Source: Escherichia coli
GTDB lineage: Bacteria > Pseudomonadota > Gammaproteobacteria > Enterobacterales > Enterobacteriaceae
Assembly: GCF_003334815.1 (NCBI RefSeq)
Contig: NZ_QOWO01000058.1
Reading direction: 5' to 3' (one strand)
Length of the DNA stretch: 13,117 nucleotides
Made by a program: the position numbers and the translations under genes. The notes beneath the pieces are model-generated. The model did not search any database. It had not been told where the DNA came from and worked only from the letters and a program-made list of their open reading frames with translations. Below are positions 3,229 to 8,815 of the stretch, in pieces; the stretch's first letter is position 1; each line of letters begins with the position of its first letter.

Positions 3229-3801
3229 ATGGCTTATGTCGATGATTTTAAAGAAGCAATAATCAGGACTCGGCGGTTACAACTTGCGCAACCCGTTGAT
3301 TTATGTGAGATGCATACTCGCATAATGAACGATAAACGAATCCGCCATTTGGGAGGAATTATACGTCCTGTACTGGATCTGAATTCTGGGTATGAACAAC
3401 TGGTTGCGCGATGTATGCCTGTTCATCTTCAAGCCAGACCTTTGGTTGAAGAATGGCTGGGATGTCCTGTTTATTTTACGTTGGGATGGATTGATGATGG
3501 GACCCCAAAAGGTATGTTCAGGTTTGATGAGGACTTTATTACTGATACATTGAAAAATGGTTATACAGGAGATACTGTCAATCTTCATGCATGGCTAACT
3601 TTACCTAGTATGGAAATTATAGATATCACATTATCAACAACAATTTCTATGTTGCAGGGGCATAAGAATCAGTTAGGCGGTGTTATTATCAAGAGAGCTG
3701 ATGATATTAAAGGCTTCTCATATAAGCCAATGCTTATTGGTGATGAATTCCTGTTAAAATCTGGTATATTGCATAAGTTTACATATCTAGAATTGAACTA
3801 G
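3229..3801 (+). CDS. Hypothetical protein, 190 aa, hydrophilic, no recognised domain
   Basis: ATG at 3229 with GGGAG (3218-3222) 6-7 nt upstream; the longer ORF-track start at 3100 overlaps the nikB 3' end and has no RBS. Stop TAG 3799-3801. AT-rich codon usage like the adjacent microcin island. Convergent with mcpB. Confidence 0.6.
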   Translation: MAYVDDFKEAIIRTRRLQLAQPVDLCEMHTRIMNDKRIRHLGGIIRPVLDLNSGYEQLVARCMPVHLQARPLVEEWLGCPVYFTLGWIDDGTPKGMFRFDEDFITDTLKNGYTGDTVNLHAWLTLPSMEIIDITLSTTISMLQGHKNQLGGVIIKRADDIKGFSYKPMLIGDEFLLKSGILHKFTYLELN

Positions 3802-3850
3802 TGTTTTTTAAATAAACTGGTTTTTTGACGTTCTTATCTCTGTTCAGAAA

Positions 3851-6040
3851 TCACCTCCTGTTGGGATGATTATTTATATTATGAGTTCTGACAGGTCGAT
3901 ATTTTATTTCCGAAAAGTGACCATCTCTCAGATACAGAACTCTGTCTGCGGATGCTATTGTTTCTGGTCGATGAGCTATTAACAGAACAGGAATTCCGAG
4001 TTGGCGTAATGTCTGGCTTATTTCTATTTCACTTTCCACATCAAGATGACTGGTTGCTTCGTCCAGTAATAATAGACTAGGTTTTTTATACAGTGCTCTT
4101 GCCAGTAGAATACGTTGCTTCTGACCACCGGAAAGTCCCCCCCCGGTTTCTCCAAGCAATGTTTGATAGCCCATTGGCATTGCCATAATATCACTGTCTA
4201 TAAGTGCCAGACTTGCGCATTTACGCATGTGTTCATGATCTCTAATTTCGCTAAAAAACATTATATTATCAGCTATAGAACCTTTGAAAAGATAGTCATC
4301 TTGCAATACAGTGCCAATTCGTTGACGAACCTGAAAATAATCAGAATGTGTATGTGGTATGCCAAATGCATTAATTCTTCCTTCACTGGGTGTATGAATC
4401 CCAAGAATAAGCTTTACCAATGTTGATTTGCCACATCCTGATTTACCTGTTATTGCTAATATTTCTCCAGGAAAGAGCATTAGTGACGCGTTATCCAATA
4501 TGGGTTTATCTGCGCCCTTATGGCTAAATGTTATTTTTTCGATAAGTAATGGTGGATGGGTATTATCATATTTATGTTCTCTGTACTGGCTTGCAGATAT
4601 TGTTTCATTATGGTTTGCCCAATGGTGCTGATTCTGGTGACCTTCCTGTGGTGTTAGCACAATATCGGCAAGTCTCTCGTTATAAACATCAAGCATGCGC
4701 CAGGAAAAAAAGTTATCAGTCAGATTGCTTATACTGGATGAAAAACGCATCTGATAGGATAAGTAAGCAACCAACATACCCACGGTAAATGTCCCATCCA
4801 GCACTTCTACTGCACCCTGCCACAAAATAATGGCTGAAACTACACTTTCCGTCAGTGTATGCGTCAGCTCATAGCTCATTTGTAAACGATTCTGGCGTAG
4901 CTGTGTGTTTCTGCGGGTAACGTTGAGGTTCAGCCAGGCCGCTTCTCTGTGAATAGTTACACCGTTGATTCTCAGACTCTGAATGCCGTTAAGGGTTTCG
5001 AGAAAATGCCCCGACTCCTTAGTTCCTGCATCCCAGACATCTTCAACAGATTGCCGTAAAGCCGGATACCACAATGCTCTCAGTGCGCCATATATAATAG
5101 CTGCAATTACTGCGATTAATGTCATTCCTGGACTATACAACAGCATCATGCAAAGAGCAGTCACAATAAGTAGCATATCCAGAATGCCTTCAAGAACCTG
5201 CGTTGTCAGCGCCTGCTGGATTATATCTACTGCTTCAAAACGGGCATTAATACTTCCTTTACTTCGGGCATCGAACCATGCAAGAGGGAGTCTTACAAGA
5301 TGATGGAAAACTCTGGCAGTCCATTGCATGTTAAAATTGACTGATAAACTGATCGTTGCCCATTGTCGTGCCAGGGAGAGTAATAATTGTATGAGTGATA
5401 ACAACAGTAGTGCCACTATAATGACATACAACAGACTTCTGTCTGCTGCAACCAGAACTTCATCAATTACCAGTTGATTAAGAAGTGGACCACCTAAAGC
5501 CAGAATCTCAAGGGCCAGAGCAAAAATAATAATTTTTGTCATTGATGCTAAAAGCCCCGGGGTTTTCCCTGTCAGTTGGCGCAGGTGGATTTTTTTTCTC
5601 TCGTTCCGGGGGGTGAAATCACTGGCTGGAGTTAATTCCAGTGCCACTCCTGTAAAATGCTTACCTGCGTCCAACAGACTTATTGTAATTTTTCCTCTGT
5701 CCGGATCATGGATGTATAACCGGTTTCCCCGAACTTTATGGAGAACGACGAAATGGTTCATATCCCAGTGCAGAATAGATGGAAGATTAAGACACCTCAG
5801 ATCTTCGGGTTCCAGACGAACTGCACGTGATGATAAATGGATGGACGCTGCACATTCGATCAACCTTTGTAGCGTCATTCCCTGAATACCTATATTGAAA
5901 CGTTCCCGTAATGTCGATAAATCTGTTTTCAGTCCATGCCAGCAGGCAATCATAGCCAGACACGCCAGACCGCATTCAGCTGATTCGGTTTGACGGATAA
6001 CGGGTAGTTGTTTCCTTACTTTCCAGTTTATTGATTCCAT
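3851..6040 (-). CDS. mcpB: Microcin ABC exporter with N-terminal C39 double-glycine peptidase domain (CvaB-like)
   Basis: C39 peptidase motifs (QTESAECGLACLAM catalytic Cys, HFVVLH His), a transmembrane domain, Walker A GKSGCGKST, ABC signature LSGGQKQR, Walker B LLLLDEATS, H-loop IAHR. Start chosen at the ATG 6040-6038, which overlaps the upstream gene stop as TAATG and has a GGA-containing SD (AAAGGAAA). The ORF-track start at 6088 adds 16 aa and lacks an SD. N-terminus aligns with CvaB (PVIxQTExAECGLACLAM). Confidence 0.92.
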   Translation of the reverse strand: MESINWKVRKQLPVIRQTESAECGLACLAMIACWHGLKTDLSTLRERFNIGIQGMTLQRLIECAASIHLSSRAVRLEPEDLRCLNLPSILHWDMNHFVVLHKVRGNRLYIHDPDRGKITISLLDAGKHFTGVALELTPASDFTPRNERKKIHLRQLTGKTPGLLASMTKIIIFALALEILALGGPLLNQLVIDEVLVAADRSLLYVIIVALLLLSLIQLLLSLARQWATISLSVNFNMQWTARVFHHLVRLPLAWFDARSKGSINARFEAVDIIQQALTTQVLEGILDMLLIVTALCMMLLYSPGMTLIAVIAAIIYGALRALWYPALRQSVEDVWDAGTKESGHFLETLNGIQSLRINGVTIHREAAWLNLNVTRRNTQLRQNRLQMSYELTHTLTESVVSAIILWQGAVEVLDGTFTVGMLVAYLSYQMRFSSSISNLTDNFFSWRMLDVYNERLADIVLTPQEGHQNQHHWANHNETISASQYREHKYDNTHPPLLIEKITFSHKGADKPILDNASLMLFPGEILAITGKSGCGKSTLVKLILGIHTPSEGRINAFGIPHTHSDYFQVRQRIGTVLQDDYLFKGSIADNIMFFSEIRDHEHMRKCASLALIDSDIMAMPMGYQTLLGETGGGLSGGQKQRILLARALYKKPSLLLLDEATSHLDVESEIEISQTLRQLGIPVLLIAHRPETIASADRVLYLRDGHFSEIKYRPVRTHNINNHPNRR

Positions 6041-7293
6041 TACAGATTTCCTTTCATGCTCCATAGTGGCTCTGTCAGCCATTCCCATAAATGACGAGTA
6101 TCAAGGTTGACGTCTCCTTCCAGAGTCATGCCTGGTCTTAGCGGTTCTTTTTTTCCGTATGCAAATATAAATGTATTTTCAGGCTCAACAATAACGCGAT
6201 AATGCCCTTCGTTTTCTTTCCATGTGACGGGTGAAACTGGTAATAAGTCGGAAGGAGCCAGAGTCGTATGACTGATTTCACGAATTGTGCCGTACTGGAT
6301 ACCAAATTTCTGATAAGGGAAGGCCGAAAACTTCAGAGATACTCGTTGACCTGGTCGGATAAAACCGGCTTTCTGGCTGGTAGCATAAAGCTCAATTTGT
6401 AAATGAGCATTATCGGGAATGAGAGTCATGACCGGTTCTGATGCTTTCACAGACTGCCCCTGTTTGATCAGTACAGCAGCAATAGTCCCGGATACTGGAG
6501 CCCTCAGTGTAAATTTTTCTTGTCCGGCCAGTTCATCCTGTTGTTGTTTTAGCACCTGCAATTGTCTGTCGAGTTCTGCTTTACGGCTTTTCCCCTGAAC
6601 AATAAGATGATTTAGTTCATCTTTGGCTGTGTCCATTGCAGTATGCAACTGGAGAAGCCCCTGACGCTGATCTTCAACGTTTTGTTGAGCGGCAGAAACA
6701 TCAATTTGTTTCTGTTGGAATTCGATATCTGACACATAATGCGTACCAGCCAATTTTTTATAGCGTTCCATGACGGATATAGCCAGTTCTGCCTGACGTT
6801 CAGCAAGCTGAAGTCTTTGTTCTGCACTTCTTATTTGTGGCTCAAGTGATACCATCCTTTGCCGTATGGCTTCCTGTTGTTGACTATTATCTCGCGACTC
6901 AAAGGATTGCTGGGAGGCCAGCATGATAGACTGGGTTTTCAGGGAAATACTCATCGTTGCTAATGTGCCAGTTCCGTTACCGTTATAATGTTCTCCACTT
7001 ATATGATAGAGTTGTGTCCCTGCAGTTACGTGTTCTCCTTCGGATACAGTCAGTTGTGTTACATATCCTGCATATTGAGGAATTATTTTTACCAGTCCTG
7101 ATGAGGGCATGACGATACCTGTAAGATGCGCTTTCCTTGTATAGCTACCGTAATAGATGAATACAGTCAGACTTAACATAATGAATAATGTAACTGTTGC
7201 ACATACGGATAGGCTAAATGATGTTGGTAAAATAATGTCACCATATTCAGTGTCATTATGATGTTCTATTGCTTCACTTCTGAATATATTCAT
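6040..7293 (-). CDS. mcpD: HlyD/CvaA-family membrane fusion protein for microcin export
   Basis: N-terminus MNIFRSEAIEHH aligns with CvaA MFRQDALENRK, followed by a single TM helix and a long coiled-coil Q/E-rich periplasmic region. Start taken as ATG 7293-7291; the ORF-track start at 7329 is a TTG with no SD. Stop TAA 6042-6040 overlaps the mcpB start. Confidence 0.88.
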   Translation of the reverse strand: MNIFRSEAIEHHNDTEYGDIILPTSFSLSVCATVTLFIMLSLTVFIYYGSYTRKAHLTGIVMPSSGLVKIIPQYAGYVTQLTVSEGEHVTAGTQLYHISGEHYNGNGTGTLATMSISLKTQSIMLASQQSFESRDNSQQQEAIRQRMVSLEPQIRSAEQRLQLAERQAELAISVMERYKKLAGTHYVSDIEFQQKQIDVSAAQQNVEDQRQGLLQLHTAMDTAKDELNHLIVQGKSRKAELDRQLQVLKQQQDELAGQEKFTLRAPVSGTIAAVLIKQGQSVKASEPVMTLIPDNAHLQIELYATSQKAGFIRPGQRVSLKFSAFPYQKFGIQYGTIREISHTTLAPSDLLPVSPVTWKENEGHYRVIVEPENTFIFAYGKKEPLRPGMTLEGDVNLDTRHLWEWLTEPLWSMKGNL

Positions 7294-7395
7294 TCTTTTT
7301 AATACAATAACTAACCTTTCTGTCAACAAGAGGGGTTGGTTGAATAATATTGATATTTGATATACATCTTACCTGTGTGATGTTAAAGTTTTATA

Positions 7396-8031
7396 CTATA
7401 ATATATTTAACAATATAACAAAGCCGTTTATCCCCGCATGTAACAGCATTGGATAGAAAATCCCCTTACTGCAAATTCTTATATTCAACAATAACATTGA
7501 CATAATAAACAGAATAATTTGATCAGCTACATTATAATACTGCGGATGCATCAGGCAGAAAAATAAAGATGTACACACGCAGGGGGTGAATAATTCTTTT
7601 TTATAAGTCGCACATAGAAGGCCGAATAAACATGTTCGGTAAACAATTTCTTCATAATACGGAACTATCAGGACCAGTATAAATATTTCAATCCAATTAA
7701 GTGAAGTTGATTCACTATTGTTTAAATTGTCTCTATAAGCAAAAATAAGCAGTTGCATGAGAGCAATTACAGCAAATGATATTACTAATAGCTTTAATGT
7801 TTTCGCATTTGTCTTTATGGTGATTTTACAACCTGGTATTCTTCTTAAGTAAAAAATATAAAATGAAGTTGATATTAAAATTTCAGTAATAAAGACAAAG
7901 GAAAATGCCAGGTCCAAACCAATATATTGTATGGTGAATGCTGGTGTGAATATCACAACTGTTGATATAACAACAAGTAGAAGAAACGCTATCGCATTAT
8001 CTTTGCTGTATTTATATATGTTATCATTCAT
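7396..8031 (-). CDS. mcpA: CPBP-family (CAAX protease / Abi-like) intramembrane metalloprotease homologue, 211 aa
   Basis: Polytopic membrane protein with the three CPBP motifs: EExxxR (EEIVYR), FxxxH (FFCLMH) and HxxxN (HAGIN). Very AT-rich. ATG at 8031-8029 lies 4 nt after the mcpI stop (TAG 8038-8036). Confidence 0.85.
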   Translation of the reverse strand: MNDNIYKYSKDNAIAFLLLVVISTVVIFTPAFTIQYIGLDLAFSFVFITEILISTSFYIFYLRRIPGCKITIKTNAKTLKLLVISFAVIALMQLLIFAYRDNLNNSESTSLNWIEIFILVLIVPYYEEIVYRTCLFGLLCATYKKELFTPCVCTSLFFCLMHPQYYNVADQIILFIMSMLLLNIRICSKGIFYPMLLHAGINGFVILLNIL

Positions 8032-8035
8032 AATG

Positions 8036-8236
8036 CTATTTCGCGGAGATTGTTCTTATTTTTTCTATGATATAGTCCATGAATCTTGCTGTGGAAAAAA
8101 GAGTGATCAGCATGACTACAATCTTTGAAAACTCGGAAGGGAGTGAAAACCAGTATAAATCAATAACAGAGGAGCCACTCAATAGCGCAAATCCCAGTAA
8201 CAAACCACATATAAAGGAAAGTAATTTAATAAACAT
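8036..8236 (-). CDS. mcpI: Small two-helix membrane protein, probable microcin immunity protein (66 aa)
   Basis: Small hydrophobic ORF immediately downstream of the precursor gene, the usual position of class II microcin immunity genes. Start chosen at ATG 8236-8234 (MFIKLL...) because GGAGG lies 8-9 nt upstream; the ORF-track start at 8251 would add 5 aa (MEGAT). Confidence 0.7.
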   Translation of the reverse strand: MFIKLLSFICGLLLGFALLSGSSVIDLYWFSLPSEFSKIVVMLITLFSTARFMDYIIEKIRTISAK

Positions 8237-8260
8237 AGTAGCGCCCTCCATTATATCTAT

Positions 8261-8623
8261 TTATCGGTTACATGTTCCGCCAACATTATTACCTGAACAA
8301 CTACTGGAACTTCCTCTGTTACCACATCCATTTCCACTACCATGATCTGAGAGACATTGACCAACAACGGCTCCACCAATGGTACCTCTTGCCATTCCTA
8401 TGGGACCTCCTTTGATCGCACCACCAATCATTCCACTAAATACAGCGTTAGCGCATTTTACAGTGCTTGGATCACTATAAATATGAGTTGGTGCGTTTCG
8501 ACCCAGTGAGTTACGAGCCCCACTGGAACGCTCATTACGGGGGCCACCTTCAAAGTTGCTGTTTGCGTTTCCTCCGCTGACAAGCGTTATCTCATCTAAA
8601 GTTAATTCTCTTATACCTGCCAT
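8261..8623 (-). CDS. mcpM: Class II microcin precursor with double-glycine leader (120 aa), matches microcin PDI McpM from memory
   Basis: N-terminal leader MAGIRELTLDEITLVSGG has the ExLxxxExxxVSGG double-glycine pattern ending at G17-G18, with a second GA site at G35/A36. Gly-rich mature region with GxxxG-like repeats (GGAIKGGPIGMARGTIGGAVVG) and Cys at 57, 90, 100, 109, 118. SD GGGGAAA upstream of ATG 8623-8621. First gene of an operon ending in a C39-ABC exporter. Confidence 0.88.
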   Translation of the reverse strand: MAGIRELTLDEITLVSGGNANSNFEGGPRNERSSGARNSLGRNAPTHIYSDPSTVKCANAVFSGMIGGAIKGGPIGMARGTIGGAVVGQCLSDHGSGNGCGNRGSSSSCSGNNVGGTCNR

Positions 8624-8780
8624 ATCATATTTCCCCTATTGGTTGTTTGTTATTTTGTGCGTTCAAGATAGCCAATAACAAAAATGTAATGAAAGTGAAA
8701 TTGTGTGATTAAATGTAAATATGTGAAAATATTTGTATGTTCTTGAGGTTGTGTGATTACAAAAATATCATCGTGTGAAG
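8624..8780 (-). promoter_or_regulatory. AT-rich promoter/operator region of the microcin operon
   Basis: About 160 bp AT-rich leader between the trbC terminator and the mcpM start. Read on the - strand it contains five TTYAC-type half-sites phased at about 10 bp (TTTCAC, TTTACA, aaTCAC, TTTCAC, aTTACA; + coordinates about 8685-8728). On the + strand TTGTGTGATTA occurs twice (8701-8711, 8749-8759). Exact -35/-10 not assigned. Confidence 0.5.
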
Positions 8781-8808
8781 ATATAAAACCGTGCCAGGGC
8801 TGGCACGG
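8781..8808 (-). terminator. Rho-independent terminator downstream of trbC
   Basis: Perfect 9-bp stem CCGTGCCAG (8789-8797) / CTGGCACGG (8800-8808) with a 2-nt loop; on the - strand it is followed by TTTTATAT (8788-8781). Lies 8 nt after the trbC stop codon (8816-8818). Confidence 0.7.
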
Positions 8809-8815
8809 CCTCTGT

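Follow-up and report, generated by a model that had tools for sequence, protein, structure and literature searches.

Background

The demonstrated or suggested roles of CPBP proteins from bacteriocin loci are immunity (SkkI, PlnI, PlnL), leader or pheromone processing (SagE, MroQ, SilX), and non-catalytic action as receptors or scaffolds (LsrS, SpdC, Abx1). In the class II microcins of E. coli the literature on such a protein is contradictory. In the microcin PDI (MccPDI) cluster, known from E. coli-25 and published in 2012 (Eberhart 2012), the CPBP gene mcpA is grouped with the precursor gene mcpM under 'microcin synthesis', with mcpI assigned to immunity and mcpD and mcpB to export (Zhao 2017). 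In the microcin S (MccS) operon of plasmid pSYM1 from E. coli G3/10, published as four genes, the CAAX-family protein McsI (216 amino acids) is the self-immunity protein (Zschuttig 2012, PMC3316575). Here we describe a computational analysis of mcpA in a 13,117-nucleotide stretch of E. coli DNA (NCBI RefSeq assembly GCF_003334815.1, contig NZ_QOWO01000058.1), referred to throughout as the window; positions are those of the window unless another locus is named. That mcpA is present in such a cluster was already known and is in itself ordinary biology. What is of interest is that one gene figures as a synthesis gene in MccPDI and as an immunity gene in MccS, that an mcpI homologue in the MccS operon was overlooked, that the published McpM cleavage experiments were carried out without mcpA, and that a two-layer, partly cross-protective immunity can be predicted.

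The most likely role of McpA, which we hold with about even confidence, is self-protection, as a second immunity layer beside McpI. A protective role that uses the active site is favoured because the catalytic residues are invariant, because McsI confers resistance, because an orphan copy of the gene exists, and because McpM is processed independently of mcpA. These lines of evidence, and the points that count against this role, are considered in turn below.

McpA as a CPBP-family protein

Gene order, the match to McpM, and primer mapping together identify the gene as mcpA, and the locus as the MccPDI cluster mcpM-mcpI-mcpA-mcpD-mcpB on an IncI1-type conjugative plasmid. McpM of the window is about 98% identical to the published protein, from which it differs at three residues, and has the published cleavage sites G17/G18 and G35/A36; the published knockout and expression primers for mcpA, mcpD and mcpB map at the expected positions. 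As in E. coli-25 (Eberhart 2012, Zhao 2017), mcpA lies between mcpI and mcpD, and the two genes are equated by position, precursor and primers, with the window cluster representing a variant allele (McpM G3, E31, C100).

A preliminary description of the gene, made from the nucleotide letters alone, proposed a CPBP/CAAX-type intramembrane protease in a Gram-negative microcin operon, here one of class II, and this was borne out by the fold match described below and by a match to Pfam PF02517 (Rce1-like) with an E value of 1.4e-13, in which residues 111-203 of McpA cover positions 3-92 of the 93 in the model. An exhaustive profile search retrieved 576 McpA relatives, and motif conservation was evaluated in an alignment of 74 of these, reaching down to about 19% identity. 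Residues P124, E127, E128, R132, H162 and H198, and no others, were invariant, and F158, N202 and F175 were kept in at least 90% of the 74 sequences; E127, E128 and R132 of the EExxxR motif were invariant also among 17 close relatives. Precisely the catalytic positions of the CPBP family are thus among those fully or nearly invariant, and all three motifs named in the preliminary description (EEIVYR, FFCLMH and HAGIN) are present, with their catalytic residues upheld in the alignment. By every computable criterion (profile, motifs 1-3 and fold) McpA is confirmed as a CPBP/Rce1-like family member, and from its conserved catalytic residues it is predicted to be catalytically competent.

A profile search of PDB sequences with McpA gave nothing at E <= 1, so that comparison at the level of fold was needed. 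The AlphaFold2 model built from the 74-sequence alignment was confident and showed an Rce1-type polytopic helical fold; a model built from the shallow 17-sequence family alignment was discarded, having a predicted local distance difference test (pLDDT) score of 47. The only strong structural matches of the confident model were SpdC/LyrA (PDB 6u0o) and Rce1 (MmRce1, PDB 4cad). McpA differs from both in having a sequence identity of just 10-20% and seven predicted helices rather than eight, and from SpdC in retaining the catalytic motifs that SpdC lacks. The N-terminus is predicted to be cytoplasmic by positive-inside inference, with 13/14 Lys/Arg on the predicted cytoplasmic side. NCBIfam yielded only sub-threshold CPBP matches, and hence no equivalog assignment; the best, at 35 bits where the cut-off is 75, was to the sorting protease MrtJ, and the MroQ equivalog model NF046050 scored 28.1 bits against a cut-off of 270. 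We know of no prenylated CAAX substrate in bacteria.

McpM cleavage in published mcpA-deletion strains

The cleavage sites of McpM were defined with plasmid-expressed McpM variants under the Ptac promoter, and the host for all of them was E25 ΔmcpMΔmcpA, as stated in the text, legends and Table S1 (Zhao 2017). When mapped on the window, the ΔmcpA primers of that study produce a scarless removal of the whole open reading frame (ORF), from 8031 to 7397. In this host the variants G26P, G27P, R5A, S16A, S33A, R37A and G41P showed the normal three-band pattern, the smallest McpM band was lost in G35P and A36D only, and in competition tests the inhibition of the target by most of the site-intact variants assayed was close to that of wild type; in ΔmcpB and ΔmcpD, both McpM cleavages vanished (Zhao 2017). 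Mass spectrometry of the middle McpM band revealed no modification, and C-terminally His-tagged McpM was detected in all three forms and was active (Zhao 2017). Substitution of either C109 or C118 by alanine left McpM function unaffected. The result in ΔmcpMΔmcpA passes without comment by the authors, whose Table S1 has no wild-type mcpM row for that host (Zhao 2017).

Taken at face value, the published strains indicate that McpA is needed neither for the McpM cuts nor for killing, and that it makes no detectable modification of the toxin. The preliminary suggestion that McpA performs the cut at G35/A36 is thereby contradicted, since cleavage persists in ΔmcpMΔmcpA and is lost in ΔmcpB and ΔmcpD, and the further suggestion that it modifies the toxin is left unsupported by the mass spectrometry. 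Processing and killing in ΔmcpMΔmcpA conflict with the earlier statement that each deletion abolishes the phenotype; the kanamycin-cassette knockouts of 2012 had polar effects (Zhao 2017). MroQ, SagE and SilX belong to the same family as McpA and likewise occur in peptide-toxin or pheromone loci, but they remove an N-terminal propeptide after a first processing step, whereas the published strains reveal no requirement for McpA in cleavage of its associated peptide.

The microcin S orthologue

McsI is 55-56% identical to McpA, and the MccS precursor, at 79% identity, is the closest relative of McpM. The two CPBP proteins have the same motifs and are encoded at the same position in orthologous operons, just before the HlyD and peptidase-C39 ABC transporter (PCAT) genes, although McsI was published as the one immunity protein of a four-gene operon and McpA as a synthesis protein of a five-gene operon. 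McsI supplied on plasmid pAZ8 or pAZ13 made enteropathogenic E. coli (EPEC) resistant to MccS (Zschuttig 2012, PMC3316575). The MccS locus was examined here on Citrobacter plasmid CP055705.1 (locus L002), whose McsS matches the published sequence. Between mcsS and mcsI, at L002 4773-4970, it contains an unannotated ORF of 65 amino acids that is 74-75% identical to McpI. Primer mapping places the start of the pAZ8 insert at about L002 4957 and so excludes this ORF, which argues that the MccS CPBP protein protects without the small protein. Both orthologous five-gene operons therefore hold an mcpI-like gene and a CPBP gene, yet the literature assigns immunity to different ones.

The four-gene picture is kept in Klebsiella microcin S-like work and in recent reviews, which describe class IIa clusters as having 'four basic genes only'. 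The classical colicin V operon is not known to have a CPBP gene, as the preliminary description also held.

Of the published MccS primers, just two, the forward primer of pAZ8 and the reverse primer of pAZ13/14, were relied on, because the pAZ9 and pAZ11 labels in PMC3316575 appear inconsistent with the plasmid table, and seem to be swapped. The mcpI-like region (L002 4695-4994) is the product of the 'ac' primers, which the list gives for pAZ9 (mcsS), and mcsS is the product of the 'ab' primers, given for pAZ11 (ORF2). The mcpI-like ORF of MccS may have been tested only as a candidate toxin.

An antisense ORF at 8079-8345 on the plus strand overlaps mcpI and the end of mcpM, with counterparts at L012 818-1069, L011 1030-1281 and L002 4712-4963. 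Such ORFs over mcpI encode 83-113 amino acids and are conserved because the sense strand is. Gene callers often choose the antisense ORF over the small gene (in L011 and L012, for example, one of 83 amino acids), and mcpI homologues probably stay unannotated for this reason.

Related CPBP-microcin loci

Eleven loci with McpA relatives of 25%-100% identity were examined. The order precursor, small two-helix protein, CPBP protein was found in eight (the window, L002, L003, L004, L008, L012, L016 and L019), in most of which HlyD and PCAT genes are adjacent; the exporter lies upstream in L004, and the L008 contig is too short for a whole exporter. Loci L005 and L017 have a precursor, a CPBP gene and an exporter, with no clear small ORF. 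At L005 3785-4872, on Klebsiella IncR plasmid NZ_CP125116.1, the PCAT gene is accompanied by a CPBP gene whose product is 25-31% identical and by a convergent gene for a GA-leader precursor of 114 amino acids with an McpM-like C-terminus; the HlyD gene there seems to contain a frameshift, and no small ORF resembling an immunity gene was found. Matches from tblastn at the same identity, about 31%, recur on many other Klebsiella plasmids (H39-H51).

Every precursor examined has a GG or GA leader and, behind it, a hydrophilic spacer about 9 to 30 amino acids long, to which a conserved Ala-Arg junction is joined in precursors with an MccPDI/MccS core. The second leaders were compared at L012 482-853, L004 4314-4673, L019 2612-2935 and window 8515-8569. 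The spacer is modular, in that L012 combines an L004-type spacer (EGHGSEVNRD...NA/R, the slash marking the junction) with an MccS-type core. By alignment, position -2 of the second cleavage site (site II) often appears not to be Gly (RNA/R in L012, GHA/R in L019, NAA/R in L004), a departure from what is usual for a C39 double-glycine peptidase. The possibility that the CPBP protein tracks the type of second leader was rejected by the table of pairwise identities.

McpA/McsI is the fastest-evolving protein of the operon, with a proportion of nonsynonymous differences (pN) of 0.26 against 0.10-0.18 for the others, and where synonymous divergence (dS) is measurable the CPBP protein is under purifying selection, with a nonsynonymous to synonymous ratio (dN/dS) of 0.17-0.24. 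An orphan homologue, P0054, the remaining one of the eleven, is found on Enterobacter cancerogenus chromosomes (L014 and L015 5001-5678). It is 45% identical to McpA with all three motifs intact, and its neighbours on either side are the genes of a LysR regulator and an EamA transporter, in the same context in independent assemblies; no precursor, small ORF or exporter was found near it. Its dN/dS is 0.24 relative to a cluster-borne relative in E. hormaechei (L016).

The nearest functional precedent for protection is in Gram-positive bacteria, where SkkI, PlnI and PlnL, all of the Abi/CPBP type, give immunity to bacteriocins, according to papers citing Kjos 2010. Like McpA they are polytopic, have the three motifs and are encoded beside class II bacteriocin genes, and mcpA does lie in one operon with a class II bacteriocin precursor. 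The likeness is at the level of the shared Pfam family. McpA differs in its Gram-negative host, in its location on a conjugative plasmid, in having a separate small immunity protein alongside, and in not co-varying with the toxin core.

Proposed role of McpA and alternatives

The mcpA gene shares a transcript with mcpM and mcpI, and its translation is probably coupled to theirs. In the proposed scheme McpA would probably capture or cleave microcin that reaches the inner membrane of the producer, or of another carrier cell, and would thus form a family-generic layer of immunity, with McpI as the toxin-specific layer. Leader removal would not be carried out by McpA, that step depending on the McpB/McpD exporter. 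We infer that McpA itself protects, that catalysis is needed for the protection, and that the microcin is the substrate. An orphan CPBP protein functioning alone fits protection better than processing of the cell's own microcin precursor. The small protein tracks the toxin core, its pairwise identities being 67-83% between loci with similar cores and 17-26% between loci with different ones, and the CPBP protein does not, which points to protection in two layers; that McpA does not co-vary with the core suggests, further, that it recognises a feature common to the family. The tolerated loss of mcpA, in plasmid pF829-2 and in ΔmcpMΔmcpA, fits a second, partly redundant layer. Among the roles offered in the preliminary description, a second immunity factor is the best supported, with the McsI data, the orphan homologue and the Gram-positive Abi precedent in its favour; the co-variation with toxin that might accompany such a role was not seen.

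Several points weigh against a protective role. Immunity in MccPDI itself has been assigned to McpI, and no direct test of McpA immunity was found; mcpA was first classed under 'microcin synthesis', and, as cited in Zhao 2017, the phenotype was said to be lost on deletion of each single gene. For MccS, immunity was assayed indirectly, through EPEC adherence, and the pAZ13 forward primer is absent from the primer list (PMC3316575). In pairwise comparison, MccS and the L004 system are 62% identical in the CPBP protein and 39% in the toxin, whereas MccPDI and MccS are 55% identical in the CPBP protein and 79% in the toxin; as judged from these sequences, CPBP divergence is uncoupled from the toxin core, unlike that of a classical cognate immunity protein, and the cognate specificity expected of Abi-type immunity, seen as co-variation with toxin, was not found for McpA. 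This lowers the case for a classical cognate immunity protein, not that for a protective factor. Finally, E. coli plasmid pF829-2 (NZ_OY754445.1; L007 4096-6067) has an IS3-family element inside motif 1 of mcpA, directly after ...VPYYEEIV, with mcpM and mcpI identical to those of the window and mcpD and mcpB intact, and is thus a natural mcpA null. Together with the ΔmcpMΔmcpA host, which tolerates Ptac-driven mcpM, it shows that McpA is non-essential for survival of the producer when McpI is present.

It is rather unlikely, in our judgement, that McpA is instead a maturation or 'activation' protease, cutting after A36 to take off the second, hydrophilic propeptide or acting on McpM in some other processing step, at least when expressed at native levels. 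The grouping of mcpA with mcpM, and the reports, as seen through Zhao 2017, that deletions abolish proximity-dependent inhibition (PDI), would agree with such a role, as would the co-occurrence of CPBP genes with double-leader precursors in every precursor examined, the non-Gly residues inferred by alignment at position -2 of site II, and the precedent of SagE, MroQ and SilX in leader or pheromone processing. Against this, site-intact McpM variants give normal bands and inhibition in the ΔmcpMΔmcpA host, both cleavages are gone in ΔmcpB and ΔmcpD, the orphan homologue exists without a precursor, McsI gives immunity to a non-producer, and the MroQ model falls far under its cut-off (28 bits versus 270). 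Cleavage at another place, in which McpA would trim the microcin C-terminus at its conserved Cys tail in the manner of CAAX proteases or myxosortases, appears very improbable. All precursors do have an invariant Cys 1-2 residues from the C-terminus (...GGTCNR, ...GQCRW, ...GGTCK), myxosortases cut after Cys-containing C-terminal tags, and the top NCBIfam match of McpA, although sub-threshold, is the sorting protease MrtJ. However, McpM with a C-terminal His tag is seen in all three forms and is active, C109A and C118A are without functional effect, and mass spectrometry found no modification. To our knowledge, other class IIa microcins also have a near-terminal Cys without any CPBP gene.

A non-catalytic or largely dispensable McpA, acting as a membrane scaffold or partner in the way of SpdC and Abx1 (for example by stabilising McpI or the exporter) or being a decaying accessory gene, is likewise improbable. 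The motifs that SpdC lacks are, in McpA and its 74 aligned relatives, represented by invariant E127, E128, R132, H162 and H198 and a nearly invariant N202, the protein is under purifying selection, and nearly all of the 60 plasmids and 49 genomes with the cluster have an intact mcpA (see below). Returning to self-protection, a broader arrangement is possible, although we advance it tentatively and as less likely than not to hold in full: the MccPDI/MccS family would pair a core-specific small protein with a catalytically active CPBP protease that recognises a family-wide feature, giving cross-immunity among MccPDI, MccS and their Klebsiella and Enterobacter relatives, and circulating as an orphan resistance gene in non-producers.

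Settling the role of McpA would correct the annotation of a microcin family that occurs in some 1% of complete E. coli genomes and on many plasmids of Klebsiella and Enterobacter, and would show which genes are required for safe heterologous production or for resistance. If the two-layer reading is true, the cluster would also provide a genetically tractable E. coli model for neutralisation of bacteriocins by Abi/CPBP proteins.

Organization and distribution of the cluster

The coordinates of the cluster and of the mcpA motifs are collected in Table 1. The stop codon of mcpI is 4 nt ahead of the mcpA start, and mcpI has two candidate starts, the annotated one at 8236 (66 amino acids) and an upstream ATG at 8251 (71 amino acids). 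The published expression primer for mcpD fits the start MNIFRSE. McpB matches an NCBIfam bacteriocin ABC exporter model (E 2e-136), with the Pfam C39 domain found on its homologues. Phospho-OmpR reportedly binds the mcpM promoter, from which mcpM-mcpI-mcpA are expressed as one unit (Zhao 2017). A promoter and terminator scan around mcpA gave weak consensus matches at best and was not used.

Table 1. Features of the microcin PDI cluster and of mcpA in the window
Feature	Position	Strand	Description and basis
mcpA ORF	7396-8031	minus	ATG-to-TAG, 211 codons; polytopic membrane protein, CPBP/Rce1-like intramembrane glutamic protease (catalysis predicted)
CPBP motif 1	7636-7653	minus	EEIVYR, residues 127-132 (E127, E128, R132); translation
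CPBP motif 2	7546-7563	minus	FFCLMH, residues 157-162 (F158, H162); translation
CPBP motif 3	7426-7440	minus	HAGIN, residues 198-202 (H198, N202); translation
mcpM	8261-8623	minus	Precursor of microcin PDI, 120 amino acids; two leaders, cleavage sites G17/G18-N19 and G35/A36-R37
mcpI	8036-8251	minus	Small two-helix membrane protein; published MccPDI immunity protein
mcpD	6040-7293	minus	HlyD-family membrane fusion protein of type I exporter; NCBIfam TIGR01843, E 1.2e-38
mcpB	3851-6040	minus	Peptidase-C39 ABC transporter (PCAT); Cys23 in QTESAECG, His96 in NHFVV
mcpM promoter region	8624-8815	minus	Text of Zhao 2017; promoter scan here gave weak consensus matches

The preliminary description also held that AT-rich codon usage sets mcpA apart from the precursor gene, and this did not stand. 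GC content at third codon positions (GC3) is 0.297 in mcpA and 0.264 in mcpM, and the gap in overall GC content, 0.305 versus 0.457, is due to glycine codons; on GC3, accordingly, the idea that mcpA had a separate origin was rejected, the signal being one of amino-acid composition and not of codon choice. The five-gene module as a whole is AT-rich, with GC3 of 0.26-0.40 as compared to 0.47 and 0.52 in the backbone genes nikB and trbC.

In the window the cluster is flanked by nikA/nikB and trbC/trbB/trbA of an IncI-type conjugative plasmid. A cluster-free IncI1 plasmid (L013) differs by an indel corresponding to about 3833-8705, some 4.9 kb, that comprises the five genes and the promoter; homology resumes at about 8706, and the plasmid retains beside nikB the gene for a hypothetical protein of 190 amino acids (3229-3801). 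This gene is AT-rich (GC3 0.32), and no NCBIfam family match was found for it. Segments at least 95% identical to the cluster are present on 60 PLSDB plasmids (52 Escherichia, 8 Salmonella), where mcpA is annotated as 'CPBP family intramembrane glutamic endopeptidase', and the cluster occurs in 49/5426 complete E. coli genomes (about 1%), always plasmid-borne. Insertion sequences were observed in mcpD of plasmids H87 and H88.

Finally, McpM of the window has G3 in place of N3 and E31 in place of D31, an allele found also in L001 and in L007, and contains five cysteines (57, 90, 100, 109 and 118), whereas the E. coli-25 protein was described with four. The odd fifth cysteine, C100, could affect the proposed disulfide-dependent activity.
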